A stretch of DNA of 64,000 nucleotides from Dreissena polymorpha (lineage: Eukaryota). The stretch lies in NCBI RefSeq assembly GCF_020536995.1, contig NC_068355.1, positions 63,280,738 to 63,344,737 on the forward strand, in the 5' to 3' direction. Under the pieces are notes generated by a model. It was not told the DNA's origin, made no database searches, and worked only from the letters and a program-made list of their open reading frames with translations. Positions 6,000 through 58,728 of this stretch are shown here, piece after piece (within the stretch, counting starts at the first letter, position 1; each line of letters opens with the position of its first letter). Both the position numbers and the translations under genes were made by a program.

Positions 6000-8900
6000 A
6001 AGGGGTTTAAAAGCATTGAAAAGGAGACTTCAAAGCATGAAAGTGAGGTGAAGATAAACGTGTGATAGTGTTAAACAAGAAGAAACATATTTATAGGTAA
6101 AAGTTGTTAAAAGCACTGTTTTGTGCATTCAGGGACGACTGGGGAGTAGAGTGGTGCTAAGGCAACGCTTAAACCCCTCTAGGTCTGTCTGCTGTATAAT
6201 TGAGGCAGGTAGGCTGTTCCAAAGAACTACGGTGTAAGGAAAGAATGAGAATTTGAAGTAGTTGGCTGATGTATGTATTTGTCTGAATGAGAGTGGGTGC
6301 ATATGACGAGTCATCCTCATAGGCCTCTCAGGATATGATGGCGGCGGAATGGCTACCAAGTCAAACACAACCTTGCAAAACATAGTCAATCGGGAGAGGT
6401 CACGGCGGTACTTTAAAGTCTGCCAGCCAAGTTAAGATTGCATACCGGTGATACTGCTGTAAATGAGTAGTTGTTTTTCACCCCTCGGACTGCTCTTCGC
6501 TGTACTTTTTCTATTTTGTCAGTATTATATTTGATATGTGGGCGCCAGACAGAAGGAAGCATATTCTACCTGAGGTCTAACTAAGGTCTTATAGGCTACT
6601 TCTCTGATGTTTTCATTTTTAGTCTGTATATTCCTGCGGATGAGACAAAGAGATTTATTAGCATCTGTTGTAATATTGGTAATATGTTCGTTCAAAGAAA
6701 TATCATCTGAAATAGAAACACCTAAATATTTAGCACTGTCTACGACTTCGCGAATTTGTCCATGTAGCCTATAATTGAAGATGAATTTATGTTTTTTCTT
6801 AGATATAATAAGGACGACACATTTACTAGGGTTGAACTCAATGCCCCACAGGTTTTCCCAATGTACTAACTTGTCTAATCAATTTTGAAGAAAGGCGCAG
6901 TCTTGCAAGTTGTTAATAGCCAAGTATACAGCAGTGTCATCTGCAAACAAGCGGACTTGAGAAGAGATAGAATTAGGGACTTTAGTACTAAGCCTTGTGG
7001 CACGCCCGATGTTACAGGGACTCCTGATGAGCATTCTCCCTCCAGTACAACTGTTTGCGATCTACCAATGAAAAAAAAACTTGATCCAGGAAACTGTCGA
7101 TTTGTTAACTCCATGTTGCTGTAATTTAAAAAGTAATTTAAGGTGGCTGACTTTATCGAAAGCTTTGCTGAAGTCTAGAAGAATAAGATCTGTTTGCTGA
7201 CCATTTACAAGATTGCGAGCCAGCTTGTCGAAAAGTTTAATAAAGTGAGTTTCGCAGGATCGTCGTTCCCTGAAACCATGTTGAAGATCATACAAAATGT
7301 TATGTTTGTTAAAATGTGCTGTGAGGTTGGAAGCTACAATATGTTCTAAAACTTTACAAAGAATATATGTTAATGAGATAGGTTTATAGTTGGCTGGATC
7401 TTGTTTATTTCCTTTTTTTGAACAGTGGTACGACATTTGCAGTGGTCCAAATCTTTGGTAAAATACCTGTGTCACGAGATTTTTTGAAAGAGAAGAGATA
7501 GTACAGGTGAGATTTGATGACGAAGATTTTGAAGGACTAGTTGCCTGATGTTGTCTGGACCCGCAGCTTTGTGGGGTTTGAGGTTGGAAAGGAGCTGCAG
7601 AACGCCGAGATAGTAATTTCTGGCATGATAGGGTGTCTGCTACTTGAAGAAGAATGAACATTAGAATTTTCGGGGGCTGAAAAGCAAGATTGAGATAGAG
7701 TTAGAGGGGACATGGGGCTTAAAACTGACTGAAATTCATGATATTGGCTTTGTCTTTATTTGAAGATTTTGTTGTACCTGAAATTTTATCGTATAATGTC
7801 GAAATACCGCATGCATCTTGTTTGGCGCTCTTGATTAGACTGAAAAGTTTTTGGAGTTTAATTTTGAACTGGATTCAACTGTTTCTCAATTTTGGTCTTG
7901 TATGCCTAAAATATATATCCAATGTAATTATTATATGAAAATGTGATGGTCTTGTTGATCTGGTGTTTTAGATTTAAATTTTTAGATTAATTTTTGTTGT
8001 TTCATTCTTTCTTCATTTTGATGTAGAGTTTATCCCTTTTCCTCAATAAGCGTTTGATGGGCTGTGTTATCCATGGTAGGGAGACTTTTGGACCTATTCT
8101 TTTTATGTGAACGTTATCTGAAATTCCTGTGAATATAGCATTACATAATTTCTCCCAGATGAATTCCACTGATGCTGTTGAATAATATGACAAAATATCA
8201 TTAGACACACCCTCCATGCACTCTTTGAATCCATCTCAGTATATTTTCTTATATTTATGTTTTTGATGCATTTGTGTCGATTTAACACTGGCTGTGAAGG
8301 AAACAAGTTCGTGGTTTGAGATACCTGGAAAACAAGAAATATCATTTATTAGTGTGTGATTAGTAGTGAGAAAAAACCTCTTGTACTAACAGTAACCATT
8401 TGGGTCAGCCCAAATTCTGAAAGTAAGTAAATGAAATCATCATAAAGATTAATAAAATTACAATTGGGTTTAATAGATGGAACATGATCTGTACTCCATT
8501 AGAATTTTGGGTAGTTGAAGTCACCTAGGATCCAGAGATTTCTTTTTAATTTACTTGCAAGATCTAAAGATTTTTCTAAATTCCAATGCGCTGTTGGTAT
8601 CTGCTGCTTAAAGTCTGTAATAAGCTGCAATGTATAAAGGTTAACATGTTTCAAAAAGCTATTTCACCCAAATGATCTCGCAATCTGTTTTGAGTTGTTT
8701 TTGCTCAGATGCGATGATTGAATTTTTGACGAGGATAAATACTCCGCCTCCTTTACTTGATGTGTCTTGCCTGAAAGAGGAATAACCTAAACCTTGTGGA
8801 AAAAATTCACTATCTTTATGATCGTTATGTAGCCAGGACTCTGTTCCTACGACAATATCTGGTCGGTGGTGATCAAGTAATGCTATAAATCAAGGCTTTT

Positions 8901-14587: not shown

Positions 14588-15255
14588 TACCAGGTTTTCC
14601 GAAGCAAAAAACTGGTTATTAGATTGGCGAATGCGGGCGGGCTGGCTGGCTGGCTGGCGGGCTGGCGGAACAAGCTTGTCCGGGCCATAACTATGTCGTT
14701 CATTGTCAGATTTTAAAATCATTTGGCACATTTGTTCACCATCATTGGACGGTGTGTCGCGCGAAATAATTACGTCTATATCTCCAAGGTCAAGGTCACA
14801 CTTTGAGTTCAAAGGTCAAAAATGGCCATAAATGAGCTTGTCCGAGCCATTACTATGTCGTTCATTGTCAGATTTTAAAATCATTTGGCACATTTGTTCA
14901 CCATCATTGGACGGTGTGTCGCGCGAAATAATTACGTCGATATCTCCAAGGTCAAGGTCACACTTTGAGTTCAAAGGTAAAAAATAGCCATAAATGAGCT
15001 TGTCTGGGCTATAACCATGTCATTCATTATGATATTTTAAAATCATTTGGCACATTTTTTCACCATCATGGGACGGTGTGTCGCACAAAAGAATCACGTC
15101 AATATCTCCAATGTCAAGGTCGCCACGACTAAAAATAGATTTATTTTAAAACAAACTTACAAAGGGTGTTAATTTTGTTTGTTCATTTAAAAAGTTCAGT
15201 TTGAGTTGTCTCCCTTTATCAGATTTTTTTTCACAATGAAAACCTGGTTTTGTGA
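14588..15255 (+). mobile_element. MITE-like element with 9-10-bp TIRs (CCAGGTTTTC / GAAAACCTGG) and three internal ~165-bp tandem repeats.
   Basis: Head taccaggttttccgaagcaaaaaactggttattagattggcgaatg; internal unit starts near 14667, 14830 and 14995; tail tgaaaacctggttttgtgacaattttgtcccttgtt. A second copy with two internal units lies at 39570-40080. Confidence 0.65.
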
Positions 15256-18134: not shown

Positions 18135-18415
18135 TTAAGGGCGGCAATTATTTATATTTGTAAGGTAGCTCTTAGTGCGGCACTGCCGCCCCAACAAGTA
18201 GCTCATAGTGCGGCACTGCCACCCCAACAAGTAGCTCATAGTGCCGCTTTGCCACCCCAACAAGTAGCTCATAGTGCCGCACTGTTGCCCCAACAAGTAG
18301 CTCATAGTGCCGCACTGTTGCCCCAACAAGTAGCTCATAGTGCCGCACTGTTGCCCCAACAAGTAGCTCATAGTGCCTCACTGCCGCCCCAACAAGTAGC
18401 TCATAGTGCCGCACT
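18135..18415. repeat. 33-bp satellite, about 8.5 units. This is the proximal piece of the megaarray, separated from the rest by a transposon insertion.
   Basis: Unit GTAGCTCATAGTGCCGCACTGCCGCCCCAACAA repeated head-to-tail. Confidence 0.9.
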
Positions 18416-19640
18416 GCCCAGGGCTCGAATTAAGCACTCGCAAACAGGCCATTTGCGAGTACATTTTAAAAAACACGTCTAAAATGCGAGTGCAACATTT
18501 AGATACTCGCCATTTTTTGCGAGTTGGGGAAAAAACAAACAAGGTGCTTAAAGATCTTGGATTAAATACAAGATTTGTTCGCCGATCGAAAGTCTTCCGA
18601 CCAAGTACGAAAATAATTAAACCCCGTCTAGTTTCGATCTAAAAATAGATCTGAAAATTGGAATTACCCTAATTTGCATAATGTATTTCAGCGGTTACTT
18701 CCGTTCTAGCAGAAATAATTTTACGAAATATTTTTTAAAATATATTTACGCTCTGCACTGTATCTTTCTGCCGATATAGTTAGTAAAGAACATTGAAAAT
18801 TATATTATTGCAATTGAAAGTATGTTATTCCCTTCTTAAGTGAAAATTGGCGATAGTTATTCAGTATGAAGTTTTTTTTAAAACGAAGCTCATTTCGTTA
18901 ATTCCTCATTCTTATAAATAGACGGAACACGTTTAGCAGACGATTTAAAAACTCAAAAATGTCGTCTACTAAAAAAATAACTAGCTTTTTTGTGGCGAAT
19001 TCCTCCGTCTCCTCTGTGGAAGACAAAAAAGCCGAGGCCGAACCAGATAAAAAGAAATGCCAAAACAGTTAAGAAATGGGAAGACGAGCTAAAAATAACT
19101 TTGAACACGGAGAGAGACCAAGACGGCAATGTGTGTAAGATGTTCTGCGATTCATCTGATTGGTCTCTACCCCCTCAGCAATGCTGAGTGTGAAAGATGC
19201 TTTTCTGTTATGAAAAGGATAAAAAGTGATTGGCGATGTTCACTAAGCACTGAAAGGATGGACCAATTAATGCGAATCTCTATCAGAGATAATGAGGGGT
19301 TCCAGCCACGCAGAGCTGTGAATAGGTGGTGGATCAGTGGCAACAGTAGCAAAAGGCCAGATGTCGCCCCATATGGACCGAGGCATTAACTTTGGATGAT
19401 ATAACTGATATAAAAAAAAATACTCTTTACACTCAATTGTGTTACAATGTTGCTTTGAAGTTTTTAGTTAAAATAAACATAGGTCCATCCTTTCAGTGCT
19501 TAGTGAACATCGCCAATCACTTTTTATCAACCAAAGGATGCATTATTATGAAAACTTGTATTGCGAGTTGGAAATAAAAAATGCGAGTTGAAATATTAAC
19601 AACTAGCAATTTTTTGCGAGTTGAAAAAAAAAAGTAATTC
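18416..19640 (+). mobile_element. Non-autonomous hAT-like DNA transposon inserted in the satellite. It has ~15-bp TIRs CAGGGCTYGAATTA and subterminal GCGAGT motifs.
   Basis: Left end CAGGGCTCGAATTAAGCACTCGCAAAC. The reverse complement of the right end is CAGGGCTTGAATTAC...CAACTCGCAAAA. Multiple (A/T)TGCGAGT(T/A) subterminal repeats occur at both ends. The internal ORF has a hATC-like motif. Satellite is on both flanks. Confidence 0.6.
19129..19389 (+). pseudogene. hAT-family transposase C-terminal dimerisation (hATC) remnant.
   Basis: Translation reads ...LYPLSNAECERCFSVMKRIKSDWRCSLSTERMDQLMRISI. This matches the hATC consensus P.SSA..ER.FS.lk.IkT..R..l....l..L..i. The protein is N-terminally truncated and there is no DDE core. 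Confidence 0.6.
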
Positions 19641-22600
19641 AAGCCCTGAAGTAGCTCATAGTGCCTCACTGCCACCCCAACAAGTAGCTCATAGTGCCGC
19701 ACTGTTGCCCCAACAAGTAGCTCATAGTGCCTCACTGCCACCCCAACAAGTAGCTCATAGTGCCTCACTGCCGCCCCAACAAGTAGCTCATAGTGCCGCA
19801 CTGCCGCCCCAACAAGTAGCTCATAGTGCCTCACTGCCACCCCAACAAGTAGCTCATAGTGCCTCACTGCCGCCCCAACAAGTAGCTCATAGTGCCGCAC
19901 TGTTGCCCGAACAAGTAGCTCATAGTGCCGCACTGCCACCCCAACAAGTAGCTCATTGTGCCTCACTGCCGCCCCAACAAGTAGCTCATAGTGCCTCACT
20001 GCCGCCCCAACAAGTAGCTCATAGTGCCGCACTGCCACCCCAACAAGTAGCTCATAGTGCCGCACTGCCGCCCCAACAAGTAGCTCATAGTGCTGCACTG
20101 CCACCCCAACAAGTAGCTCATAGTGCTGCACTGCCGCCCCAACAAGTAGCTCATAGTGCCTCACTGCCGCCCCAACAAGTAGCTCATAGTGCCTCACTGC
20201 CACCCCAACAAGTAGCTCATAGTGCCTCACTGCCGCCCCAACAAGTAGCTCATAGTGCCTTACTGCCACCCCAACAAGTAGCTCATAGTGCCTCACTGCC
20301 GCCCCAACAAGTAGCTCATAGTGCCGCACTGTTCCCCCAACAAGTAGCTCATAGTGCCTCACTGCTGCCCCAACAAGTAGCTCATTGTGCCTCACTGCCA
20401 CCCGAACAAGTAGCTCATAGTGCCGCACTGCCACCCCAACAAGTAGCTCATAGTGCCGCACTGTTGCCCCAACAAGTAGCTCATAGTGCCTCACTGCCAC
20501 CCCAACAAGTAGCTCATAGTGCCTCACTGTTGCCCCAACAAGTAGCTCATAGTGCCGCACTGCCGCCCCAACAAGTAGCTCATAGTGCCTCACTGCCACC
20601 CCAACAAGTAGCTCATAGTGCCTCACTGCCACCCCAACAAGTAGCTCATAGTGCCGCACTGTTGCCCCCAACAAGTAGCTCATAGTGCCTCACTGCCACC
20701 CCAACAAGTAGCTCATAGTGCCGCACTGCCGCCCCAACAAGTAGCTCATAGTGCCTCACTGCCGCCCCAACAAGTAGCTCATAGTGCCGCACTGCCACCC
20801 CAACAAGTAGCTCATAGTGCCACACTGCAACCCCAACAAGTAGCTCATAGTGCCGCACTGCCGCCCCAACAAGTAGCTCATAGTGCCTCACTGCCGCCCC
20901 AACAAGTAGCTCATAGTGCCTCACTGCCACCCCAACAAGTAGCTCATAGTGCCGCACTGCCGCCCCAACAAGTAGCTCATAGTGCCTCACTGCCGCCCCA
21001 ACAAGTAGCTCATAGTGCCGCACTGCCGCCCCAACAAGTAGCTCATAGTGCCTCACTGCCGCCCCAACAAGTAGCTCATAGTGCCTCACTGCCACCCCAA
21101 CAAGTAGCTCATAGTGCCTCACTGCCACCCCAACAAGTAGCTCATAGTGCCGCACTGTTGCCCCAACCAGTAGCTCATAGTGCCGCACTGCCACCCCAAC
21201 AAGTAGCTCATAGTGCCTCACTGCCGCCCCAACAAGTAGCTCATAGTGCGGCACTGCCGCCCCAACAAGTAGCTCATAGTGCCTCACTGCCACCCAAACA
21301 AGTAGCTCATAGTGCCGCACTGCCGCCCCAACAAGTAGCTCATAGTGCCGCACTGTTGCCCCAACAAGTAGCTCATAGTGCCGCATTGCCGCCCCAACAA
21401 GTAGCTCATAGTGCCTTACTGCCACCCCAACAAGTAGCTCATAGTGCCGCACTGCCGCCCCAACAAGTAGCTCATAGTGCCGCACTGTTGCCCCAACAAG
21501 TAGCTCATAGTGCGGCACTGCCGCCCCAACAAGTAGCTCATAGTGCCTCACTGCCACCCCAACAAGTAGCTCATAGTGCCGCACTGCCGCCCCAACAAGT
21601 AGCTCATAGTGCCGCACTGTTGCCCCAACAAGTAGCTCATAGTGCCTCACTGCCGCCCCAACAAGTAGCTCATAGTGCCTCACTGTTGCCCCAACAAGTA
21701 GCTCATAGTGCCTCACTGCCACCCCAACAAGTAGCTCATAGTGCCTCACTGCCGCCCCAACAAGTAGCTCATAGTGCCGCACTGCCACCCCAACAAGAAG
21801 CTCATAGTGCCGCACTGTTGCCCCAACAAGAAGCTCATAGTCCCGCACTGCCGCCCCACCAAGTAGCTCATAGTGCCTCACTGCCACCCCAACAAGTAGC
21901 TCATAGTGCCTCACTGCCACCCCAACAAGTAGCTCATAGTGCCTCACTGCCACCCCAACAAGTAGCTCATAGTGCCTCACTGCCACCCCAACAAGTAGCT
22001 CATAGTGCCGCACTGCCACCCCAACAAGTAGCTCATAGTGCCGCACTGTTGCCCCAACAAGAAGCTCATAGTCCCGCACTGCCGCCCCAACAAGTAGCTC
22101 ATAGTGCCTCACTGCCACCCCAACAAGTAGCTCATAGTGCCTCACTGCCACACCAACAAGTAGCTCATAGTGCCTCACTGCCACCCCAACAAGTAGCTCA
22201 TAGTGCCTCACTGTTGCCCCAACAAGTAGCTCATAGTGCCTCACTGCCACCCCAACAAGTAGCTCATAGTGCCTCACTGCCACCCCAACAAGTAGCTCAT
22301 AGTGCCTCACTGCCACCCCAACAAGTAGCTCATAGTGCCTCACTGCCACCCCAACAAGTAGCTCATAGTGCCTCACTGCCACCCCAACAAGTAGCTCATA
22401 GTGCCTCACTGCCACCCCAACAAGTAGCTCATAGTGCCTCACTGCCGCCCCAACAAGTAGCTCATAGTGCCTCACTGCCGCCCCAACAAGTAGCTCATAG
22501 TGCCTCACTGCCACCCCAACAAGTAGCTCATAGTGCCGCACTGCCACCCCAACAAATAGCTCATAGTGCCTCACTGCCACCCCAACAAGTAGCTCATAGT

Positions 22601-25600
22601 GCCTCACTGCCACCCCAACAAGAAGCTCATAGTGCCTCACTGCCACCCCAACAAGTAGCTCATAGTGCCTCACTGCCACCCCAACAAGTAGCTCATAGTG
22701 CTGCACTGCCACCCCAACAAGTAGCTCATAGTGCCTCACTGCCACCCCAACAAGTAGCTCATAGTGCCTCACTGCCGCCCCAACAAGTAGCTCATAGTGC
22801 CTCACTGCCGCCCCAACAAGTAGCTCATAGTGCCGCACTTCCACCCCAACAAGTAGCTCATAGTGCCTCACTGCCACCCCAACAAGTAGCTCATAGTGCC
22901 ACACTGCCACCCCAACAAGTAGCTCATAGTGCCTCACTGCCGCCCCTACAAGTAGCTCATAGTGCCTCACTGCCACCCCAACAAGTAGCTCATAGTGCCT
23001 CACTGCCGCCCCCAACAAGTAGCTCATAGTGCCTCACTGCCACCCCAACAAGTAGCTCATAGTGCCTCACTGCCGCCCCAACAAGTAGCTCATAGTGCCG
23101 CACTGTTGCCCGAACAAGTAGCTCATAGTGCCGCACTGCCACCCCAACAAGTAGCTCATTGTGCCTCACTGCCACCCCAACAAGTAGCTCATAGTGCCTC
23201 ACTGCCACCCCAACAAGTAGCTCATAGTGCCGCACTGCCACCCCAACAAGTAGCTCATAGTGCCGCACTGCCACCCCAACAAGTAGCTCATAGTGCCTCA
23301 CTGCTGCCCCAACAAGTAGCTCATAGTGCCGCACTGTCGCCCCAACAAGTAGCTCATAGTGCCGCACTGCCGCCCCAACAAGTAGCTCATAGTGCCTCAC
23401 TGCCGCCCCAACAAGTAGCTCATAGTGCCGCACTGCCGCCCCAACAAGTAGCTCATAGTGCCTCACTGCCGCCCCAACAAGTAGCCCATAGTGCCTCACT
23501 GTCGCCCAAACAAGTAGCTCATAGTGCCTCACTGCCGCCCCAACAAGTAGCTCATAGTGCCTCACTGCCGCCCCAACAAGTAGCTCATAGTGCCTCACTG
23601 CCGCCCCAACAAGTAGCTCATAGTGCCTCACTGCCGCCCAAACAAGTAGCTCATAGTGCTGCACTGCTGCCCCAACAAGTAGCTCATAGTGCCGCACTGC
23701 TGCCCCAACAAGTAGCTCATAGTGCCGCACTGTTGCCCCAACAAGTAGCTCATAGTGCCTCACTGCCACCCCAACAAGTAGCTCATAGTGCCGCACTGCC
23801 ACCCCAACAAGTAGCTCATAGTGCCTCACTGCCACCCCAACAAGTAGCTCATAGTGCCGCACTGTTGCCCCCAACAAGTAGCTCATAGTGCTGCACTGCC
23901 ACCCCAACAAGTAGCTCATAGTGCTGCACTGCCGCCCCAACAAGTAGCTCATAGTGCCTCACTGCCGCCCCAACAAGTAGCTCATAGTGCCTCACTGCCA
24001 CCCCAACAAGTAGCTCATAGTGCCTCACTGCCGCCCCAACAAGTAGCTCATAGTGCCTTACTGCCACCCCAACAAGTAGCTCATAGTGCCTCACTGCCGC
24101 CCCAACAAGTAGCTCATAGTGCCGCACTGTTCCCCCAACAAGTAGCTCATAGTGCCTCACTGCTGCCCCAACAAGTAGCTCATTGTGCCTCACTGCCACC
24201 CGAACAAGTAGCTCATAGTGCCGCACTGCCACCCCAACAAGTAGCTCATAGTGCCGCACTGCCACCCCAACAAGTAGCTCATAGTGCCTCACTGCTGCCC
24301 CAACAAGTAGCTCATAGTGCCGCACTGTCGCCCCAACAAGTAGCTCATAGTGCCGCACTGCCGCCCCAACAAGTAGCTCATAGTGCCTCACTGCCGCCCC
24401 AACAAGTAGCTCATAGTGCCGCACTGCCGCCCCAACAAGTAGCTCATAGTGCCTCACTGCCGCCCCAACAAGTAGCCCATAGTGCCTCACTGTCGCCCAA
24501 ACAAGTAGCTCATAGTGCCTCACTGCCGCCCCAACAAGTAGCTCATAGTGCCTCACTGCCGCCCCAACAAGTAGCTCATAGTGCCTCACTGCCGCCCCAA
24601 CAAGTAGCTCATAGTGCCTCACTGCCGCCCAAACAAGTAGCTCATAGTGCTGCACTGCTGCCCCAACAAGTAGCTCATAGTGCCGCACTGCTGCCCCAAC
24701 AAGTAGCTCATAGTGCCGCACTGTTGCCCCAACAAGTAGCTCATAGTGCCTCACTGCCACCCCAACAAGTAGCTCATAGTGCTGCACTGCCACCCCAACA
24801 AGTAGCTCATAGTGCCTCACTGCCGCCTCAACAAGTAGCTCATAGTGCCGCACTGCCGCCCCAACAAGTAGCTCATAGTGCCGCACTGCCACCCCAACAA
24901 GTAGCTCATAGTGCCTCACTGCCACCCCAACAAGTAGCTCATAGTGCCGCACTGCCGCCCCAACAAGTAGCTCATAGTGCCGCACTGTTGCCCCAACAAG
25001 TAGCTCATAGTGCTGCACTGCCACCCCAACAAGTAGCTCATAGTGCCTCACTGCCACCCCAACAAGTAGCTCATAGTGCCTCACTGCCACCCCAACAAGT
25101 AGCTCATAGTGCCGCACTGCCGTCCCAACAAGTAGCTCATAGTGCCTCACTGCCACCCCAACAAGTAGCTCATAGTGCCGCACTGCCGCCCCAACAAGTA
25201 GCTCATAGTGCCTCACTGCCGCCCCAACAAGTAGCTCATAGTGCCGCACTGCCGCCCCAACAAGTAGCTCATAGTGCCTCACTGCCATCCGAACAAGTAG
25301 CTCATAGTGCCTCACTGCCGCCCCAACAAGTAGCTCATAGTGCCTCACTGCCGCCCCAACAAGTAGCTCATAGTGCCTCACTGCCGCCCCAACAAGTAGC
25401 TCATAGTGCCTCACTGCCGCCCCAACAAGTAGCTCATAGTGCCTCACTGCCGCCCCAACAAGTAGCTCATAGTGCCTCACTGCCGCCCCAACAAGTAGCT
25501 CATAGTGCCTCACTGCCGCCCAACAAGTAGCTCATAGTGCCTCACTGCCGCCCAAACAAGTAGCTCATAGTGCCTGCACTGCTGCCCCAACAAGTAGCTC

Positions 25601-28600
25601 ATAGTGCCGCACTGCTGCCCCAACAAGTAGCTCATAGTGCCGCACTGTTGCCCCCAACAAGTAGCTCATAGTGCCTCACTGCCGCCCCCAACAAGTAGCT
25701 CATAGTGCCGCACTGCCGCCCCAACAAGTAGCTCATAGTGCCGCACTGCCCACCCCCAACAAGTAGCTCATAGTGCCGCACTTGCCACCCCAACAAGTAG
25801 CTCATAGTGCCTCACTGCCACCCCCAACAAGTAGCTCATAGTGCCGCACTTGCCGCCCCAACAAGTAGCTCATAGTGCCTCACTGCCACCCCAACAAGTA
25901 GCTCATAGTGCCGCACTGCCGCCCCAACAAGTAGCTCATAGTGCCTCACTGCCGCCCCAACAAGTAGCTCATAGTGCCGCACTGCCGCCCCAACAAGTAG
26001 CTCATAGTGCCTCACTGCCACCCGAACAAGTAGCTCATAGTGCCTCACTGCCGCCCCAACAAGTAGCTCATAGTGCCTCACTGCCGCCCCAACAAGTAGC
26101 TCATAGTGCCTCACTGCCGCCCCAACAAGTAGCTCATAGTGCCTCACTGCCGCCCCAACAAGTAGCTCATAGTGCCTCACTGCCGCCCCAACAAGTAGCT
26201 CATAGTGCCTCACTGCCGCCCCAACAAGTAGCTCATAGTGCCTCACTGCCGCCCGAACAAGTAGCTCATAGTGCCTCACTGCTGCCCCAACAAGTAGCTC
26301 ATAGTGCCTCACTGCCGCCCGAACAAGTAGCTCATAGTGCCTCACTGCGGCCCCAACAAGTAGCTCATAGTGCCTCACTGCCGCCCCAACAAGTAGCTCA
26401 TAGTGCCTCACTGCCGCCCGAACAAGTAGCTCATAGTGCCTCACTGCTGCCCCAACAAGTAGCTCATAGTGCCTCACTGCCGCCCCAACAAGTAGCTCAT
26501 AGTGCCTCACTGCGGCCCGAGCAAGTAGCTCATAGTGCCTCACTGCTGCCCCAACAAGTAGCTCATAGTGCCTCACTGCCGCCCAAACAAGTAGCTCATA
26601 GTGCCTCACTGCCGCCCCAACAAGTAGCTCATAGTGCCTCACTGCCGCCCCGAACAAGTAGCTCATAGTGCCTCACTGCTGCCCCAACAAGTAGCTCATA
26701 GTGCCTCACTGCCGCCCCAACAAGTAGCTCATAGTGCCGCACTGCCGCCCCAACAAGTAGCTCATAGTGCCTCACTGCCACCCGAACAAGTAGCTCATAG
26801 TGCCTCACTGCCGCCCCAACAAGTAGCTCATAGTGCCTCACTGCCGCCCCAACAAGTAGCTCATAGTGCCTCACTGCCGCCCCAACAAGTAGCTCATAGT
26901 GCCTCACTGCCGCCCCAACAAGTAGCTCATAGTGCCTCACTGTTGCCCCAACAAGTAGCTCATAGTGCCGCACTGCTGCCCCAACAAGTAGCTCTTAGTG
27001 CCGCACTGCCACCCCAACAAGTAGCTCATAGTGCCGCACTGTTGCCCCCAACAAGTAGCTCATAGTGCCTCACTGCCGCCCCAACAAGTAGCTCATAGTG
27101 CCTCACTGCCGCCCCAACAAGTAGCTCATAGTGCCTCACTGCTGCCCCAACAAGAAGCTCATAGTGCCTCACTGCCACCCAACAAGTAGCTCATAGTGCT
27201 GCACTGCTGTCCCAACAAGTAGCTCATAGTGCTGCACTGCTGCCCCAACAAGTAGCTCATAGTGCCGCACTGCCGCCCCAACAAGTAGCTCATAGTGCCG
27301 CACTGTTGCCCCCAACAAGTAGCTCATAGTGCCTCACTGCCGCCCCAACAAGTAGCTCATAGTGCCTCACTGCCACCCGAACAAGTAGCTCATAATGCCT
27401 CACTGCCGCCCCAACAAGTAGCTCATAGTGCCTCACTGCCACCCCAACAAGTAGCTCATAGTGCCTCACTGCCGCCCCAACAAGTAGCTCATAGTGCCTC
27501 ACTGCCGCCCCAACAAGTAGCTCATAGTGCCTCACTGCCACCCCAACAAGTAGCTCATAGTGCTGCACTGTTGCCCCCAACAAGTAGCTCATAGTGCCTC
27601 ACTGCCACCCCAACAAGTAGCTCATAGTGCCTCACTGCCGCCCCCAACAAGTAGCTCATAGTGCCTCACTGCCGCCCCAACAAGTAGCTCATAGTGCCTC
27701 ACTGCCACCCAAACAAGTAGCTCATAGTGCTGCACTGTTGCCCCCAACAAGTAGCTCATAGTGCCGCACTGCCACCCCAACAAGTAGCTCATAGTGCCTC
27801 ACTGCCACCCGAACAAGTAGCTCATAGTGCCTCACTGCCACCCCAACAAGTAGCTCATAGTGCCTCACTGCCGCCCCAACAAGTAGCTCATAGTGCCTCA
27901 CTGCCACCCCAACAAGTAGCTCATAGTGCCTCACTGCCACCCCAACAAGTAGCTCATAGTGCCTCACTGCCGCCCAAACAAGTAGCTCATAGTGCCACAC
28001 TGCCACCCCAACAAGTAGCTCATAGTGCCTCACTGCCGCCCCAACAAGTAGCTCATAGTGCCTCACTGCCGCCCCAACAAGTAGCTCATAGTGCCTCACT
28101 GCCGCCCCAACAAGTAGCTCATAGTGCCTCCTGCCCCCAACAAGTAGCTCATAGTGCCTCTCTGCCACCCCAACAAGTAGCTCATAGTGCCGCACTGCCG
28201 CCCCAACAAGTAGCTCATAGTGCCTCAATGCCACCCGAACAAGTAGCTCATAGTGCCTCACTGCCGCCCTAACAAGTAGCTCATAGTGCCTCACTGCCGC
28301 CCGAACAAGTAGCTCATAGTGCCTCACTGCTGCCCCAACAAGTAGCTCATAGTGCCTCACTGCCGCCCGAACAAGTAGCTCATAGTGCCTCACTGCGGCC
28401 CCAACAAGTAGCTCATAGTGCCTCACTGCCGCCCCAACAAGTAGCTCATAGTGCCTCACTGCCGCCCGAACAAGAAGCTCATAGTGCCTCACTGCTGCCC
28501 CAACAAGTAGCTCATAGTGCCTCACTGCCGCCCCAATAAGTAGCTCATAGTGCCTCACTGCGGCCCGAACAAGTAGCTCATAGTGCCGCACTGTTGCCCC

Positions 28601-29335
28601 AACAAGTAGCTCATAGTGCCTCACTGCCACCCCCAACAAGTAGCTCATAGTGCCGCACTGCCGCCCCAACAAGTAGCTCATAGTGCCTCACTGCCACCCC
28701 AACAAGTAGCTCATAGTGCCGCACTGCCGCCCCAACAAGTAGCTCATAGTACCTCACTGCCACCCCAACAAGTAGCTCATAGTGCCTCACTGCCACCCCA
28801 ACAAGTAGCTCATAGTGCCTCACTGCCACCCCAACAAGTAGCTCATAGTGCCTCACTGCCACCCCAACAAGTAGCTCATAGTGCCTCACTGCCGCCCCAA
28901 CAAGTAGCTAATAGTGCCTCACTGCCGCCCCAACAAGTAGCTCATAGTGCCTCACTGCCACCCAAACAAGTAGCTCATAGTGCTGCACTGTTGCCCCCAA
29001 CAAGTAGCTCATAGTGCCGCACTGCCACCCCAACAAGTAGCTCATAGTGCCTCACTGCCACCCCAACAAGTAGCTCATAGTGCCTCACTGCCACCCCAAC
29101 AAGTAGCTCATAGTGCCTCACTGCCACCCCAACAAGTAGCTCATAGTGCCTCACTGCCACCCCAACAAGTAGCTCATAGTGCCTCACTGCCGCCCCAACA
29201 AGTAGCTCATAGTGCCTCACTGCCGCCCCAACAAGTAGCTCATAGTGCCTCACTGCCACCCGAACAAGTAGCTCATAGTGCCGCACTGCCGCCCCAACAA
29301 GTAGCCCATAGTGCCGCACTGTTGCCCCAACAATT
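19640..29335. repeat. 33-bp satellite megaarray, about 294 units over ~9.7 kb, with S/A and P/L-type variant units, sporadic 34-bp (+C) units, and internal higher-order segmental duplications.
   Basis: Perfect 33-nt periodicity with consensus GTAGCTCATAGTGCCTCACTGCC(A/G)CCCCAACAA. Duplicated blocks include ~23040-23870 versus ~24190-24780, 20220-20470 versus 24050-24300, and 26250-26560 versus 28290-28600. A more degenerate zone lies at 25500-25860. Confidence 0.95.
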
Positions 29336-30025
29336 TGCTGCCCTAGGCCTCTGCCTGGCTTGCTAAGTGGTTAGACTGGGCCTGTCTTTAATATACATGT
29401 TACATAGAGTTTAGGTTACTGTCATTACTTATTCATAGATTTGAACTGTAGAAGGTTGACCATTACCGTTCGATGTGATTAAGGTAAAACATGTTTTTTT
29501 TAATCTGTAGTTAAGCAAGAGGAATGGTGACTGTGCTTCAAAAGCCACAACATGAATTGCATGTCCATGGTGTGGGTGAAGTTCATGTTCTTACACCTGT
29601 CCTACTTTTACTGTGCTTATTGAAAAATAAAAGTAATTTACATTACTCTGTACAATATTTCCTTGTTCTTGCTATGAGAAAACCCACAGAATGAGGACAA
29701 TTTATTTTGCTATCCCTGTGTTTGTGAATGCCATGGATACAACACTACACTACACATGTTAATGGGACCTATTCATGTTTTGATAAATTGACAAAAATTG
29801 TTTTTGAAATTATGTTTTTGCAAGGAAATAGTAGCACTGAACATTAACTATGCTGTAAACTATCCATTATATGCATCTTTTGACAATTTAAAAATATGAA
29901 AATTTTAAAGCGTTACAAATGTGAAACGATTGAATTAGCCGTTTTGTTGTTATCGTTTTATTTGTAACATTATGAGGATTGTGCATATAAAGTATAGAAT
30001 ACCTCTGTGATTATATCAGAACAGC

Positions 30026-30530
30026 TTGCCGAGTGGTTTAAGCCCTATAAGACTTTTACTCCAAGTGTCTGTGGTTCGAGCCCAGGTGTGGATGACTTTT
30101 TATGCCCCCAGATCGAAAGATCGGGGGTATATTGTTTTTGGCCTGTCTGTCATTGTATGTGTGTGTGTGTCCCTAAACGTTAACCTTGGTTATAACTTTT
30201 GCAATATTCAAGATAGCAACTTGATATTTGGCATGACTGTGTATCTCATGGAGCTGCACATTTTGAGTGGTGAAAGGTCAAGGTCATCCTTCAAGGTCAA
30301 AGGTCAAAAAAACTAATTTAAAAACTTTAACCAAAACTTAAACCTTCTTCATTACTTTTGCAATATTGACGATAGCAACTTGATATTTGGCATGCATGTG
30401 TATCTCATGGAGCTGCAAATTTTGAGTGGTGAAAGGTCAAGGTCATCCTTCAAGGTCAAAGGTCAAATTTATGGCTTCAAAGCGGCGCAATAGGGGGCAT
30501 TGTGTTTCTGACAAACACATAACTTGTTTT
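30026..30530 (+). mobile_element. Composite SINE/MITE/Helentron-like element: tRNA-like head, hairpin, (TG)n, two ~160-bp satellite-like repeats and a conserved tail.
   Basis: 30030-30100 reads GCCGAGTGGTTTAAGCCC...GTGGTTCGAGCCCAGG, tRNA-like. Then TTTATGCCCCCagatcgaaagatcGGGGGTATAT. The core repeats ttgaagatagcaacttgatatttggcatg...ggtcaaggtcatccttcaaggtcaaaggtcaaa lie at 30196-30300 and 30356-30470. The tail is caaagcggcgcaatagggggcattgtgtttctgacaaacacataacttgtt. Confidence 0.6.
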
Positions 30531-30843
30531 TCTTTCTTTACCTTTATTTTTGTTTTATTCTGGCACTCTTTAATTTCATTGTTCACATTTATCAATTTAA
30601 AACATTTAATGGCAAATTTTGAAACAGGCCTGTGAAAAAGTCCCTTAAAATGTTTAATTGGTCTTGCCCAAAATCATAGATTTATATTGACAGGCCTGTT
30701 TCATTATATGCTTTAAAGCAATAATATGAGAATCATTTGATGGCCAAACTTCCGATTTTCTACATGCTTTAAAGCTGAGACTTAGTAATTGACAAGTCCA
30801 AGGAGTACAGATTTTAAATCTTTATTTCCAGTAAATCATTACC

Positions 30844-30983
30844 ATGGCAACTACAGGCAAGAAAGAATCTGAGTCGCTGATTCGTATCCCCCCATATTAT
30901 TACATCCATGTCCTTGACCAGAACAAGAATGTCACGAGACTGGAGATTGGGCCCAACACCTTTATCAGACAGGACCATGAGAG
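30844..30983 (+). CDS. MVP: Major vault protein, exon 1: [46 protein letters not shown], ending in phase 2.
   Basis: The N-terminus is highly similar to vertebrate MVP ([35 protein letters not shown]). The donor is GAG|GTGAGT. Confidence 0.93.
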
Positions 30984-31164: not shown

Positions 31165-32035
31165 TTTTTATGTCCCCCACTATAGTAGTGGAAGACATAT
31201 TGTTTTTGCCCTGTCTGTTGGTCTGTTTGTTGGTTGGTCTGTTGGTTGGTTGGTTGGTTTGCGCCAACTTTAACATTTGCAATAACTTTTGCAATATTGA
31301 AGATAGCAACTTGATATTAAGCATGCAAATGTATCTCATGGAGCTGCACATTTTGAGTGGTGAAAGGTCAAGGTCAAGGTCATCCTTCAAGGTCAGAGGT
31401 CAAATATATGGGTCAAAATGGCTCATTTAATGTACACTTTTGCAGTATTTCAATATTCAAGATAGCAACTTGATATTTATCATGCATGTGTATCTCATGG
31501 AGCTGCACATTTTTAGTGGTGAAAGGTCAAGGTCATCCTTCAAGGTCAGATGTAAAATATATGTGGCCAAAATCGCTCATTCTATCAGACCTTTTGCAAT
31601 ATTGAAGATAGCAACTTGATATTTGGCATGCATGTGTATCTCATGGAGCTGCACATTTTGAGTGGTGAAAGGTCAAGGTCATCCTTCAAGGTCAGAGGTC
31701 AAATATATGTGGCCCAAATCGCTTATTTTATGAATACTTTTGCAATATTGAAGATAGCATCTTGATATTTGGCATGCATGTGTATCTCATGGAGCTGCAC
31801 ATTTTGAGTGGTGAAAGGTCAAGGTCATCCTTCAATGTCAAATATATGGGTCAAAATTGCTCATGTAATGTCACTTCTGCAATATTGAAGCTAGCAATTT
31901 TATATTTGAAATGCATGTGTATCTCATGAAGCTGCACATTTTGAGTGGTGAAGGGTCAAGGTCAAGGTCATCCTTCAAGGTCAAACGTCATATAGGGGAC
32001 ATTGTGTTTCACAAACGCATCTTGTTGGCTAAGTT
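31165..32035 (+). mobile_element. Hairpin-(GTCT)n-satellite element with five ~150-bp internal repeats, inside MVP intron 1.
   Basis: Head ttttatgtcccccactatagtagtggaagacatattgtttttgccctgtctgttggtctgtttg. Core repeats ttgaagatagcaacttgatat...ggtcagaggtcaaatatatg are at ~31290, 31440, 31590, 31745 and 31870. Tail ggggacattgtgtttcacaaacgcatcttgtt. Confidence 0.6.
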
Positions 32036-32284: not shown

Positions 32285-35200
32285 TAGCTCATGTTTTTTT
32301 TTTTTTTAAATGAGCTATTGTCATCATCTTGGCGTCGGCGTTGGTGTTGGCGTCCGGTTAAGTTTTGCGTTAAGGTCCACTTTTCTCATAAAGTATCAAT
32401 GCTATTGCATTCAAACTTGGTACACTTACTTACTATCATGAGGGGACTAGGCAGGCAAAGTTAGATAACTCTGGCTTGCATTTTGACAGAATTATGTGCC
32501 CTTTTTATACTTAGACAATTGAAAATTTTGGTTAAGTTTTGTGTTTAGGTCCATTTTATTCCTTAAGTATCAAAGCTATTGCTTTCATACTTGCAACACT
32601 TACTTACTATCATTAGGGGACTGTGCAGGCAAATTTATGTAACTATGACTAGCATTTTGACAGAATTATGTGCCCTTTTTATACTTAGAAAATTGAAAAT
32701 TTTGTTAAGTTTTGTGTTTAGGTCCACTTTTTTTCTATAGTATCAAAGCTATTGCTTTCATACTTGCAACACTTACTAACTATCGTAAGGGGACTGTGCA
32801 GGCAAAGGTCATTCTTCAAGGTAAAAAAAAATATATAATTTTCAAAGCAGCGTTCTCACAAAGCTGCACATTTTGAGTGGTGGAAGTTCAATATCAAGGT
32901 CATCCTTCAAGGTCAAGGTCATCCTTCAAGGTTAAAGGTAAAAAAATAAAAATTCTAAAGCGACGTTCTCATGAAGCTGCACATTTTGAGTGGTGGAAGT
33001 TCAAGGTCAAGGTCATCCTTCAAGGTCAAGGTCATCCTTCAAGGTCAAAGGTCCAATTTTTTTTATTTCAAAGCGGCGTTCTCATAAAGCTGCACATTTT
33101 GAGTGGTGGGAGTTGATGGTCAAGGTCATCCTTCAAGGTAAAAGGTAAAATAAACAATTTTTTTTTTTTCAAAGCGGCGCAATAGGGGGCATTGTGTTTC
33201 TGACGAACACATCTCTTGTTTTTTTTAAAACATTGTTAAAAAAAATAAATATTTATTTTTATTATTTTATTTTTGAAATAGTGTCCAACCATCCCACCCA
33301 AGAATCCCCCCCCCCCAATTTTTTTTTATGCCCCCTTTCGAAGAAGAAGGGGTATATTGCTTTGCTCATGTAGGTCGGTCTGTCGGTCGGTCGGTCCGTC
33401 CACCAGGTGGTTTCCGGATGATAACTCGAGAATGCTTGGGCCTAGGATCATGAAACTTCATAGGTACATTGATCATGACTCGCAGATGACCTCTATTGAT
33501 TTTGAGGTCACTAGGTCAAGGTCATGGTGACCCGTAATAGTAAAATGGTTTTTGGATGATAACTCAAGAATGCATACATGGCCAACAGGGAGAACTCTGA
33601 ACAATATAACTGAAGCAACTGGTCTGTAATCCTAAATCTATAATTATCAGTCCAATGAAACATAATCCTTTGAGTAAAATAAAGTGGATCAGTAAAAATA
33701 TTATCAGAATATGAGATTTTTTGTATATTTTGTATATTAAATATTGTGTTAATGTTAAATTTTGTTGATTAATATAAATATAAGCAGGACAGGGGAGGTA
33801 ATACACTATTATATCTTTCTTATATACAGGGGAAACAAATGCAATAAGTTTAAATTTCATGTTTAATGAATAGAGGATATTTATCATGTCAGTGTGAGAT
33901 CATTTGTTATTTTTTAGGATCACATTTTATTATTACTTTGACAAAACAACACTTACCTGAATACCACAATGGATTCCATCCAACAATACCCCACGCCCCT
34001 ACCAGAATCCCTTCCCTCCCCCCAACCTCAACTCCCCCCCCCCAATTTTTTTTGTAAACATCATCAAATAAATTACCACAACCCCACATTTTACCCCCCT
34101 CTCACCACCTTCCCCCCTACCCACCCCCCCACACCCCCTTCCCCCCACCCCCCCCAATTTTTTTTAAACATCTAATAAATAAACCCCCCCCCCCACATTA
34201 TACCCCCCTCTCACTCCCCCCGACCCCCCCTACCCCCCAATTTTTTTTAAACATTTAATAAATTACCACTCCCCACATTATTCCCCTCTCACTCCCCCCC
34301 TACCCCCCTACCCCCCACCCCCCCCCCATTTTTTTTTAAAACATTTTCTAAATAACCCCACCCTACATTATTACCCCCTCTCACCCCCCACCCCCTACCC
34401 CCCCTAATTTTTTTTTTAAGCATCTTATAAATTACTACACCCCACATTATACCCCCCTCTCACCCCCCCACCCCCCACCCCCCCCCAATTTTTTTTTTAA
34501 ACATCGGATAAATTACCCCACCCTACATTATTACCCCCTCTCACCCCCCTACCCCCCCCCCAACCCACCCCCCCCAATTTTTTTTTTAAACATCTTATAA
34601 ATTACCCCACCCCACATTACACCCCCCTCTCACCCCAACCCCCCTTACCCCCCCAACCCCACCCCCCCCAAAAAAATTCTTTTTTAACATCTAATAAATT
34701 ACCACACCCCACATTATACCCCCCTCTCACCCCCCTACTCCTACCCCTACCCCCCCCCCCCCAGCCCCCCCAGCCCCTTCCCCCATTTTTTTTTAACAAT
34801 CTAATAAACTACCACACCCAACATTATACCCCCCTCTCACTCCCCCCCTACCCACCTACCCCCCCCCCCACGGCCCCCCCCCCCCCCATTTTTTTTTTTT
34901 AAACAACTTTTAAATTACCACACCCCACATTATACCCCCCTCTCACTCCCCCCTTGATCATGACTGGCAGATGACCCCTATTGATTTTCAGGTCACTAGG
35001 TCAAAGGTCAAGGTCACAGTGACTCGAAATAGAACAATGGTTTCCGGATGATAACTTACAAAAGGTCAAGGTCACAGTGACAAAAAACGTATTCACACAA
35101 CGGCTGCCACTGCAACTGACAGCCCATATGGGGGTTTGCATGTTTTACAAACAGCCCTTGTTTTATTTTTTTCTGCATTTTTGGAAGATACTGTAATAAA

Positions 35201-40467: not shown

Positions 40468-40587
40468 GGAGAGCTGTCATTTTTCCTGATGCCAGGTGAG
40501 CAATTGGAGCGAGGCATACAGAACGTCTACATCCTGGGGGAAGACGAGGGACTCATCCTGCGGGCAAACGAGACATTCACTGATGGG
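40468..40587 (+). CDS. MVP: MVP exon 6: [40 protein letters not shown].
   Basis: Acceptor tttcag|GGA. Conserved [23 protein letters not shown]. Donor GGG|GTAGGG. Confidence 0.9.
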
Positions 40588-42450
40588 GTAGGGCACATTG
40601 ATATGTACAGTGGTGTTAGTTAATCAGACATTCATAGATGGGGTAGGGCATATTGAGTTGTACAGTGGTAACAGTTAATGAGACGTTCATAGATTGGGAA
40701 GGCCACATTGAGATGTACAGTGGCACCAGTTAATGAGACATTCATAGACAGGGTAGGGCACATTGAGATTTACAGTGGTACTGGTTAATTAGACATTCAT
40801 AGATTGGGTAGGGCACATTCAGATGTACAGTGGTATTTTTATGCCTCCGAAGGAGGGCATATAGTGATCGCATTGTCCTTCTGTCTTTCCAGCATACTTA
40901 TGCGTTTAGGTTTCGAAAAATGCACATAACTTCTATATCGCTTCAGATGTAACCTTAATATTTGGTATGCATGTGTATATGGACCAGGCCTTTCCATATG
41001 CACACACATTTTGACCCCTTTGACTTTTACCTTGAACTTAGGGTCCGCGTTAAGGTTTCAAAATCTGCGTTTAGGTTTCGAAAAAAGAGTTTTTATGGGG
41101 CATATGTCTTCCGATGGAGACAGCTCTTGTTGTGAATAAGACATGCACAAACGAGGTAAGGTATACTGAGATGTTCAGTCGAACTGCTTAATGAGACATT
41201 CATAGATTGGGTAGGGCACACTGAGATGAACAGTGCTGTTGGTTAATGAGACATTCATAGACATTTATAGAAGGATTAGGGCGTGAAAAGATACTCAGAT
41301 GTACAGTGGAGTTTTTTAATGAGACATTCATTGACACATAGGGAACATTTATATATATAGTGGTATAAGTTATTGAGACATTCACTGACGGGTAGGGTAT
41401 GTTGAGATTAACAGTGGTGTTGGTTAATAAGACATACACAGGCATCGTAGAGTGCATAAAGATGTACAGTGGAATTAGTTGTTGAGACATTCATAGACAG
41501 GGTAGAGCGTGAAGATATAAGGAGATTTACAGTGGTGTTTAATGAGTTGTTTATAGACTGGGTAAGGGTACATTGAGATGTACTGTGGTATTAATTATTG
41601 AGACAATTATAGACAGGGTAGGGCACACTGCGATGTAAAGTGGTGTTAGGCAATGAGACATTAATATACAGGGTCGGGCATATTGAGATGTTCAGTGCTT
41701 TTAGTTAATGAGACATTCAAAGATGGGGTCAGGCACATTGAGATGTACAGAGGTATTTGGTATTAAGACAATCATTGACAAGGTAGGGCACACTGAGATG
41801 TACAGTGATGCATGTATAAGCTATTGAGACAATCATAGACAGGGTAGGGCGTGAAGATATACTGAGATGTACAGTGGTATTAGTTGTGAGACATTCATAG
41901 ATGGGGTAGGGCACATTGAGATGTACTGTGGTATTAATTATTGAGGCAATTATAGACAGAGTAGGGCAAACAGATGAACAGTGGTGTTAGTTAATGAGAA
42001 ATGCACAGACAGGGTAGGGTGCATTTAGATGTACAGTGGAATTAGTTATATAGACAGTCATAGACGGGATAGGGCGTGACGATATACTGAAATGAACAGT
42101 GGTTTTAGTTAATGAGACATTCATAGATGGGGTAGGGCATATTAAAATATACAGTGGTTTTAGTTAATTATACATTAATTGGTATTAGTAAATGAGACTT
42201 TCATAGACAGGGTTGGGCACACTGATCAGTGATGTTGGTTAATTAAACATTAATAGATGGGGTAGGGGGCATTGGATGTACAATGGTACTGGTTAATGAG
42301 AAATTTATATATGGGTTAAAAAACATTGAGATGTAGAGTGGTATTAGTTATGAGACATTCATAGACAGGGTAGGGTATGAAGAGATACTGAGATATACAG
42401 TGATGTTGGCATATGAGACATTCATAGAGGGGGAAGGGCACATTAAGTAG
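40588..42450 (+). repeat. Intronic minisatellite in MVP intron 6: a ~59-bp unit in about 26 copies that starts at the exon 6 donor.
   Basis: Unit aatgagacattcatagatggggtagggcacattgagatgtacagtggtattagtta. The first unit overlaps the exon end (acgagacattcactgatggg|gtagggcacattgatatgtacagtgg). The array is interrupted by an element insertion at 40843-41135. Confidence 0.85.
40843..41135 (+). mobile_element. Hairpin-headed element inserted into the intron 6 minisatellite.
   Basis: Head tttttatgcctccgaaggagggcatatagtgatcgcattgtccttctgtc, tail tttttatggggcatatgtcttccgatggagacagctcttgtt. The minisatellite resumes on both sides. Confidence 0.55.
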
Positions 42451-44496: not shown

Positions 44497-44960
44497 TCAT
44501 TTTTATGCCCCCTTTCGAAGAAAAGGGGGTATATAGTTTTCGCACTGTCAGTCTGTCACACTTTTTGTGTCCGCTCTCTAATTCAAATAGTTTTTATCAG
44601 ATCTTTACCAAACTAGGTAAAGTTCGAATATGGGTCATGCCAGGTAAAAAACTAAGTCACGGGGTCGAAAAAAACAAATCCAAGGGAACTTATAAGCTTT
44701 AAATGGACAATTATCTGACCTGCCGAATTATATATTTTTGTTAAATAAATCAAAGCGGCGCAGTAGGTGGCATTGTGTTTCTGACAAACACATCGTGGTA
44801 AAAGGTCAAGGTCATCCTTCAGGGTCTAAGGTCAAAAAAACAAATCCAAGAGAAGTAATAAGCTTTAAATGGAAATAATTATTCACTATAGAACATAGCA
44901 ACTTGATATTTGGCATGCATGTGTATCTCATGGAGCTGCACATTTTGAGTGGTGAATCTA
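44497..44960 (+). mobile_element. Hairpin-headed element (TTTATGCCCCCtttcgaagaaaaGGGGGTATAT) plus a partial satellite-like core, in MVP intron 9.
   Basis: Head at 44497. Tail caaagcggcgcagtaggtggcattgtgtttctgacaaacacatcgtgg at ~44750-44800. Core fragment at 44800-44960. A further tail-only fragment, cccccccccccccccgcgg...caaagcggcgcagtaagggggcattgtgtttctgacaaacatatctcttgtt, lies at 45300-45490. Confidence 0.55.
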
Positions 44961-46589: not shown

Positions 46590-46890
46590 TTTTTATGCCC
46601 TCAGATCGAATGATCAGGGGTATATTGTTTTTGGCCTGTCTGTCTGTCATTGTCTGTCTGTCATTGTCTGTCTGTCATTGTCTGTGTCACAAACTTTAAC
46701 CTTTGTCATAACTTTTGCAATTTTTAAGATAGCAACTTGATATTTGGCATGCATGTGTATCTCATGGAGCTGCACATTTTGAGTGGTGAAAGGTCAAGGT
46801 CATCCTTCAAGGTTAAAGGTCAAATATATGGCTTCAAAGCAGCACAGTAGGGGGCATTTTTTTCACAAACACAGCTCTTGTTTCTATCTA
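46590..46890 (+). mobile_element. Single-unit copy of the hairpin-(GTCT)n-satellite element in MVP intron 10.
   Basis: ttttatgccctcagatcgaatgatcaggggtatattgtttttggcctgtctgtctgtcattgtctg... one core repeat ... caaagcagcacagtagggggcatttttttcacaaacacagctcttgtttc. Confidence 0.65.

Positions 46891-58697: not shown

Positions 58698-58728
<31 letters not shown>

Follow-up and report, generated by a model that had tools for sequence, protein, structure and literature searches.

The 64,000-nucleotide stretch of DNA analyzed here (zebra mussel, Dreissena polymorpha, NCBI RefSeq assembly GCF_020536995.1, contig NC_068355.1, positions 63,280,738 to 63,344,737 of the forward strand; below, the window) contains about 300 tandem copies of a 33-bp unit upstream of the gene for the major vault protein (MVP). 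Very probably this array is a non-coding, GC-rich tandem repeat of the minisatellite type (about 300 x 33 bp), which arose in situ in the Dreissena lineage and was reshuffled by slippage and unequal exchange. The evidence is the anatomy of the array, the blocks of units duplicated inside it, the lack of a coding signature, an inserted transposon and, in two related families, the lack of such an array. An earlier interpretation made from the letters alone, here called the sequence-only reading, had taken the array for a satellite with a possible centromeric, heterochromatic or boundary role.

A 33-bp array in two blocks

Boundaries and period of the array were determined with Tandem Repeats Finder (TRF), and the units were parsed with the invariant 5' half of each as anchor. 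All statements on the uniqueness of the unit and of the flanks refer to the 64-kb window in one assembly sequence. By TRF, with 93% matches, a period of 33 runs for 7.7 copies at 18165-18418 and for 293.1 copies at 19649-29333; the parse gave 301 head-to-tail units, all on the + strand, in two blocks (18165-18418 and 19649-29335). This bears out the roughly 300 head-to-tail copies of the sequence-only reading as well as its right-hand end at 29335; its left-hand end at 18135 has to be moved to 18165, and an insertion of 1,230 bp that breaks the array had been overlooked. The parts of the array are:

18165-18418, + strand: left array segment, 7.7 units, the most diverged; its last unit ends at unit position 23, cut by the insertion
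18419-19648, no strand assigned: terminal inverted repeat (TIR) DNA transposon insertion, non-autonomous and probably hAT-like, 1,230 bp between the two array blocks
19649-29335, + strand: main array, 293 units, GC 56%, CpG observed/expected 0.35
25495-25865, + strand: cluster of length variants, 8 among 12 units (+C, +G, +T, -C)

Successive units are mostly 33 bp apart (278 spacings), the other spacings being 34 bp (17), 32 bp (2), 35 bp (1) and 30 bp (1). The consensus is GTAGCTCATAGTGCC(T/G)CACTGCC(G/A)CCCCAACAA, polymorphic at position 16 (T/G) and position 24 (G/A) just as had been described, and a 21-nt pattern from the unit occurs 299 times in the window, always on the + strand, vs. 0 times in shuffled sequence. 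With up to 7 mismatches allowed and both strands covered, the remaining 53 kb of the window, outside 18165-29335, contained not a single monomer of the unit. Of the 69 distinct unit variants, the five most frequent are alike except at positions 16 (T/G) and 22-24 (CCG, CCA, TTG). The recurrent 34-bp unit with an additional C was also recovered: 13 of the 17 units of this length have C5 in place of C4, and both 32-bp units lack one C.

GC content is 56% in the array, which is C-rich on the + strand, and 34-37% in the surroundings. Variation between units is concentrated at positions 15/16, 22-24 (CCG/CCA/CTG/TTG) and 28. Apart from position 28, which is additional, the variable sites are essentially the CpGs of the richest form of the unit (GCCGCAC, CTGCCGCC) together with their TpG and CpA derivatives. 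Germline methylation followed by deamination would thus be the main source of the unit variants, as judged from this substitution pattern and the CpG observed/expected ratio of the array.

GC-rich minisatellites, or variable number tandem repeats (VNTRs), have 10-100-bp units in kilobase-scale arrays, the classical hypervariable minisatellites of vertebrates being an example, and length polymorphism between individuals is the practical hallmark of a VNTR. The unit described here lies within the 10-100 bp range and is arranged head-to-tail, in an array of 0.25 kb + 9.7 kb that has sharp edges and window-unique flanks. Like the vertebrate minisatellites, the array is GC-rich, strand-asymmetric and on the 10-kb scale, it lies in euchromatic non-coding DNA near a gene, and its variant units are interspersed, locally duplicated and follow a CpG-decay pattern. 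It differs from typical minisatellites in its copy number, as about 300 copies is at the large end, and in the literature searched it is without sequence relation to any described minisatellite.

Two other characters of the unit were considered and rejected. As single-stranded DNA neither strand folded better than its shuffles (z = 0.59 and 0.13), and a structure-forming DNA was dismissed on these values. A derivation of the unit from the A-box of a tRNA or short interspersed nuclear element (SINE) (GTAGCTCA..AGTG) was likewise dropped: no Rfam family matched in or around the array, with no signal of tRNA or any other family at E<=10, and ARAGORN predicted nothing in or near it.

Duplicated blocks and remodelling of the array

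To find duplications the array was compared with itself as a string of unit types, with 100 shuffles of the unit order as control. Three pairs of identical blocks were found:

23217-23777, + strand: duplication 1, copy 1, 17 units, 561 bp, identical to 24208-24768
24208-24768, + strand: duplication 1, copy 2, identical to 23217-23777
20080-20442, + strand: duplication 2, copy 1, 11 units, identical to 23878-24240
23878-24240, + strand: duplication 2, copy 2, identical to 20080-20442
26228-26425, + strand: duplication 3, copy 1, 6 units, identical to 28276-28473
28276-28473, + strand: duplication 3, copy 2, identical to 26228-26425

The longest identical run in the shuffles was 4.3 units on average and 6 at maximum. 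When mismatches are allowed duplication 1 grows to 855 bp (23010-23864 and 24001-24855). Since rare unit variants recur in the same order within the blocks, the members of each pair are copies and not products of convergence. The duplications are isolated events with offsets of 30, 62 and 115 units, and a regular higher-order period was not found, as the autocorrelation of unit identity has no dominant lag and TRF gives a period of 33 only. The sequence-only reading had thus correctly noticed duplicated blocks, at coordinates that were approximately right, but the higher-order structure it had proposed does not amount to a regular higher-order repeat. Multi-unit blocks duplicated inside an array are also seen in satellites with higher-order repeats such as primate alpha satellite; compared with what is generally known of alpha satellite, the array has isolated duplications without a regular higher-order period and measures 11 kb rather than hundreds of kilobases.

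Unit identity at lags of 1-5 units is slightly raised (0.13-0.17 vs. 0.10 expected). Raised identity at short lags without a long period would be the signature of local slippage or unequal exchange combined with a few larger out-of-register events, and the block duplications, which go far beyond the shuffles, support the remodelling by unequal crossing-over that had been suggested earlier. Divergence is greatest in the units at the left end and in the very last unit (mean edit distance 2.3 in the left segment vs. 1.3-1.7 inside the array), as expected at the ends of an array, where homogenisation is weakest.

In the mechanism that we propose, the roughly 300 copies would have arisen in situ in the Dreissena lineage, within repeat-rich non-coding DNA upstream of MVP. 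Growth and ongoing reshuffling of the array would proceed by replication slippage, unequal (out-of-register) exchange or gene conversion, and this would leave identical units in runs, scattered duplications of several units, and edges where the units have diverged more. Decay of the unit's CpGs to TpG and CpA would generate most of the unit variants. Close to its left edge the array took up a DNA transposon. The mechanism, slippage or unequal exchange, is inferred from the order and divergence of the units.

An insertion near the left edge

The ends of the insertion are 14-nt terminal inverted repeats (CAGGGCTCGAATTA and TAATTCAAGCCCTG, 93% complementary), which lie exactly at the ends of the interruption. 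The insertion also has TGCGAGT repeats in subterminal position, a 50-nt inverted repeat in its interior and a remnant open reading frame (ORF) at 19105-19386, whose match to the Pfam domain Dimer_Tnp_hAT is weak (E=0.0088, 16.3 bits, under the 21.4-bit cut-off) and for which PDB gave no match. A second copy of the insertion was not present within the window. From these features we class the insertion as a non-autonomous TIR DNA transposon, probably hAT-like, although we do not claim membership in that superfamily.

An 8-bp target-site duplication is absent: on direct reading the flanking 8-mers are GCACTGCC and AAGTAGCT. Instead, the unit at the junction lacks exactly 8 of its 33 nt (GCCCCAAC). 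Only about 8 of the 301 units lie to the left of the insertion. Its position and the missing 8 nt are compatible with insertion into a small proto-array that then expanded on one side, or with an adjacent deletion.

Origin in the Dreissena lineage and the question of dispersal

For comparison, MVP and the 10 kb upstream of it were taken from Mya arenaria (91% identity at the protein level) and Mactra antiquata (88%). Neither species had a sizeable tandem array or a match to the unit in these 10 kb, which shows that the array is not a conserved feature upstream of MVP and that it arose in the lineage leading to Dreissena. Synteny between the flanks of the Mya gene and the window was not detected by tblastx. 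Both immediate flanks of the array are single-copy, its edges are sharp, TRF found no microsatellite adjoining it and no recognisable element ends were seen in the flanks. Degenerate founder units in the flanks were not significant either (local alignment vs. shuffles, best p 0.02 and 0.028 in 10 tests).

The array could instead be one locus of a satellite DNA family dispersed through the Dreissena genome, having numerous arrays on several chromosomes, perhaps distributed by a mobile element. This is possible, though in our judgement rather unlikely. It gains from the satellite DNAs of the oyster Crassostrea gigas, which are spread along the chromosome arms in scattered, relatively short arrays with monomers from 21 bp; the longest standalone array has 232 monomers, and association with Helitrons is frequent but not universal (PMC8268682). 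It gains also from the window itself, which is full of other dispersed elements bearing tandem repeats. Set against it are the lack of a second copy of the unit in the rest of the window on either strand, and the flanks, which are unique there and lack both element ends and a microsatellite. An exact 22-mer spanning the unit junction had 0 matches in metagenome, viral and prokaryote-genome collections, a weak argument as the control did not prove that Dreissena DNA is present there: a scan with a dispersed 146-bp family of the window returned 20 metagenome contigs at only 64-86% identity, which maybe come from other bivalves.

The oyster satellites (CgiSat) are in several respects a close parallel, being tandem arrays of a few to a few hundred monomers in gene-containing DNA of chromosome arms, for which unequal crossing-over was invoked as the mechanism of array length change (PMC8268682). 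Most oyster monomers, however, are 160-180 bp or longer, and many arrays are flanked by Helitron or Helentron boxes and a microsatellite (PMC8268682), whereas the flanks of the Dreissena array are unique in the window and without recognisable element ends. In the literature searched we found neither the sequence of the unit nor a study of the satellitome, repeatome or minisatellites of Dreissena, and the zebra mussel genome paper takes up neither nuclear tandem repeats nor MVP. The minisatellite-type array would add one entry to a Dreissena satellitome, with limited meaning for biology at large; if it is a single locus and polymorphic in length, it is a possible hypervariable marker for invasion genetics.

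Assembly quality

Another explanation is that the size and structure of the array are partly an artefact of assembly, caused by mis-joined or duplicated long-read consensus within the repeat. The indel-dense stretch at 25495-25865 and the C homopolymer variants of +/-1 are typical of unpolished long-read consensus, and exact kilobase-scale duplications can be produced by mis-assembly as well. The duplicated blocks, however, hold distinctive rare variants in a consistent order and in different contexts, and the array is anchored by the transposon insertion and by both unique flanks. Moreover, the +C form is not randomly distributed but linked to the TTG type of unit (Fisher p=5e-5), and at 27717 and 28970 it stands in one and the same O-R-D context of units. 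From this linkage and recurrence it follows that at least part of the +C variation is inherited and not error. We hold such a partial artefact to be improbable, while the cluster at 25495-25865 is either a locally diverged patch or low-quality long-read consensus. The locus is in any case a place to check the quality of long-read consensus.

The array and the MVP gene

The gene downstream of the array was identified as MVP in agreement with the sequence-only reading, which had placed it about 1.5 kb away. Its + strand exons begin with the ATG at 30844 and extend to about 48.7 kb, and the assembled product has the Pfam domains Vault, Vault_2/3/4 and MVP_shoulder, matches MVP chains in PDB (1.6e-46) and is 100% identical to D. 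polymorpha KAH3882664 / XP_052213085. The distance from the end of the array to the start codon is 1,508 bp:

29336-30843, no strand assigned: spacer between array and MVP, 1,508 bp; unique at 29336 to about 29800, then repeats that recur in the window
30844-30983, + strand: first coding exon of MVP, 100% identical to D. polymorpha MVP KAH3882664 / XP_052213085

Within the spacer, 29810-30101 matches 2114-1805 at 70% identity and ARAGORN calls tRNA-like sequence there. The call is a 99-nt tRNA-Arg(CCG)-like sequence at 1810-1908 on the - strand, and the 300 bp surrounding it recur between the array and MVP. Both copies (29810-30101, and 1805-2114 on the - strand) probably belong to a tRNA-derived SINE family rather than containing a functional tRNA gene. 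Another dispersed element, one with 146-bp internal repeats, has a copy in the spacer at 30097-30530.

On direct reading a splice-acceptor-like ctttatttccag is found at 30820-30831, ending 12 nt before the MVP ATG. Because of this acceptor-like sequence the start of MVP transcription may lie elsewhere; the ATG exon may be exon 2, preceded by an untranslated exon 1, with the promoter further upstream and the array possibly even intronic. With a spacer that consists partly of repeats, the earlier claim that the array abuts the MVP promoter is not established.

Three near-identical MVP proteins are annotated on the same 211-Mb chromosome (KAH3882664/XP_052213085, KAH3882682 = DPMN_006626, and XP_052213104), and one copy lies in the window. 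This suggests a recent duplication of the MVP gene in the zebra mussel; look-ups of the three proteins gave no alternative assembly or paralogous locus.

The motif CCGCCCC, which we take to be the complement of the GC-box core, occurs 113 times in the array vs. 1 time elsewhere in the window. A more far-reaching interpretation would make the array a Dreissena-specific, length-hypervariable block of >100 GC-box-like CpG motifs, upstream of MVP or, if the ATG exon is exon 2, in a 5' intron, that acts in cis as a methylation-dependent modulator or barrier and/or serves as the seed locus of a young, spreading satellite family. We give this interpretation a very small probability. About as improbable is the proposal of a cis-regulatory array, whether as multimerised GC-box-like sites, as a methylation-sensitive CpG block or as a length-variable VNTR that tunes MVP transcription. 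The motif count, the position within 1.5 kb of the first coding exon and the character of a GC-rich island in AT-rich surroundings are in its favour. The motif count, however, merely reflects the repeated unit, the CpG observed/expected ratio of 0.35 argues for methylated, decaying sequence over a protected CpG island, Mya and Mactra have no such array upstream of MVP, and the transcription start of MVP may not adjoin it. That the minisatellite-type array has no function is, like its mechanism, an inferred part of our interpretation.

A role as a centromeric or pericentromeric satellite in heterochromatin, or as a boundary element of chromatin, along the lines of the sequence-only reading, is extremely improbable. 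The features that would favour such a role are generic, namely the length and homogeneity of the tandem array and its contrast in GC content with the flanks. The location of a classical satellite in gene-poor DNA was not found here, as the MVP start codon is 1,508 bp away and exons follow to about 48.7 kb. The proposal is unsupported and conflicts in part with the local context: a single array of 11 kb, 1.5 kb from a conserved gene and amid ordinary repeat- and gene-bearing sequence, with sharp edges, unique flanks and no regular higher-order structure, and absent from the orthologous regions in two related families.

Open reading frames on both strands

The unit is free of stop codons in one frame per strand (VAHSASLPPQQ on the + strand, VGAAVRHYELL on the - strand), and not in two as the sequence-only reading had it. 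Open runs reach 794 and 795 codons on the two strands. Since 96% of shuffled 33-mers of matching composition also have at least one open frame on each strand, the long ORFs carry no information; ORFs on both strands are the automatic result of a unit length divisible by three (3 x 11). For ORF-based gene callers the locus is thus a trap (100-800-codon ORFs on both strands).

The substitution pattern is not of a coding type. Relative to the consensus, substitutions at codon positions 1/2/3 of the + frame number 169/62/132, without a third-position bias, and 128 synonymous codon changes compare with 206 non-synonymous ones. Twenty units shift the frame. No homologue of the + frame was found in a collection of 5.8 billion protein sequences, which includes the NCBI proteins of D. 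polymorpha. For the - frame an exhaustive HMMER search against 1.84 billion representatives gave no related protein, the only matches being unrelated proteins whose perfect repeats are likewise 11 residues long (best E=5.6e-27, none <1e-30; identity 20-54%).

The matched proteins, with repeats such as VVVEASTTLVG or RARALLAGVGL, represent spurious periodic ORFs annotated over 33-bp minisatellites in other eukaryote genomes. They show that gene predictors often translate arrays of this kind, but their sequences are unrelated to the present unit, with an identity that is driven by the periodicity, and the Dreissena array has apparently not been annotated as protein. The ORFs were therefore rejected as coding sequence, on the lack of homologues in either frame, the 20 frameshifting units and the substitution pattern, in line with the earlier description of them as spurious.

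That the array encodes a protein of 11-residue tandem repeats, for instance a secreted structural or byssal one, has a probability close to nil: the long open runs and the repeat-rich structural proteins that Dreissena does make, e.g. shematrin-like proteins (PMC9210306), would fit it, but the frame is broken by 20 units, and some of these breaks are inherited as the +C form is linked to the TTG type, third-position bias is lacking, more of the codon changes are non-synonymous than synonymous, the two strands are open to the same degree, as by chance, and neither frame resembles any annotated or predicted protein.

Taken together, the array appears to be a previously undescribed yet ordinary member of a familiar class, of low general interest, and nothing that we found points to a function or a centromeric role. 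Some points weigh against this interpretation. For the transposon junction that is without a target-site duplication we offer no explanation. The frameshifts consist partly of +/-1 C in a homopolymer and the stretch at 25495-25865 looks like noisy long-read consensus, so the argument from a broken ORF is weaker than it looks. The 113 CCGCCCC motifs lie near the start of a gene, and an effect on MVP in cis is possible. Finally, absence of evidence for a role of the array would not amount to evidence of absence.

Other features of the window

A dispersed element with internal tandem units of 113-152 bp and the motif AAGGTCAAGGTCATCCTTCAAGGTCA was found at 30097-30530, 31266-31993, 32805-33226, 44500-44956, 46590-46883, 50162-51042 and 58034-58726. 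This family occurs throughout the region upstream of MVP and in its introns, with related copies at 64-86% identity in the 20 metagenome contigs mentioned above, and this transposon/satellite hybrid, of the kind typical of bivalves, may be widespread.

The first MVP intron contains an extremely C-rich degenerate tandem repeat (34036-34953) with units of about 80-170 bp, composed of C-runs and an AT-rich spacer, and a GC skew of -0.92. A 55-bp tandem repeat forms two arrays in MVP introns, at 40570-40835 (4.8 copies) and 41297-42166 (15.4 copies), with 68-84% matches; the GC skew of this region is strongly positive.

Upstream of the 33-bp array the sole confirmed feature of the first 18 kb (1-18 kb) is a fragment of a non-long terminal repeat (non-LTR) retrotransposon at 7062-7661 on the - strand, recognised by its RVT_1 domain (E=4.8e-13). 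ORF fragments in this region that had been assigned by eye to a long interspersed nuclear element (LINE) endonuclease or to a Mutator-like element (MULE) transposase gave no significant Pfam match. The minus-strand ORFs next to the RVT_1 fragment resemble the remainder of its element, though below significance in Pfam.

The window is also unusually dense in short tandem arrays with units of 145-356 bp and 2-6 copies, at 14673-15121, 32356-32807, 48992-49728, 54699-55213, 55697-56648, 56801-57663 and 60425-61085, none of which comes near the copy number of the 33-bp array.

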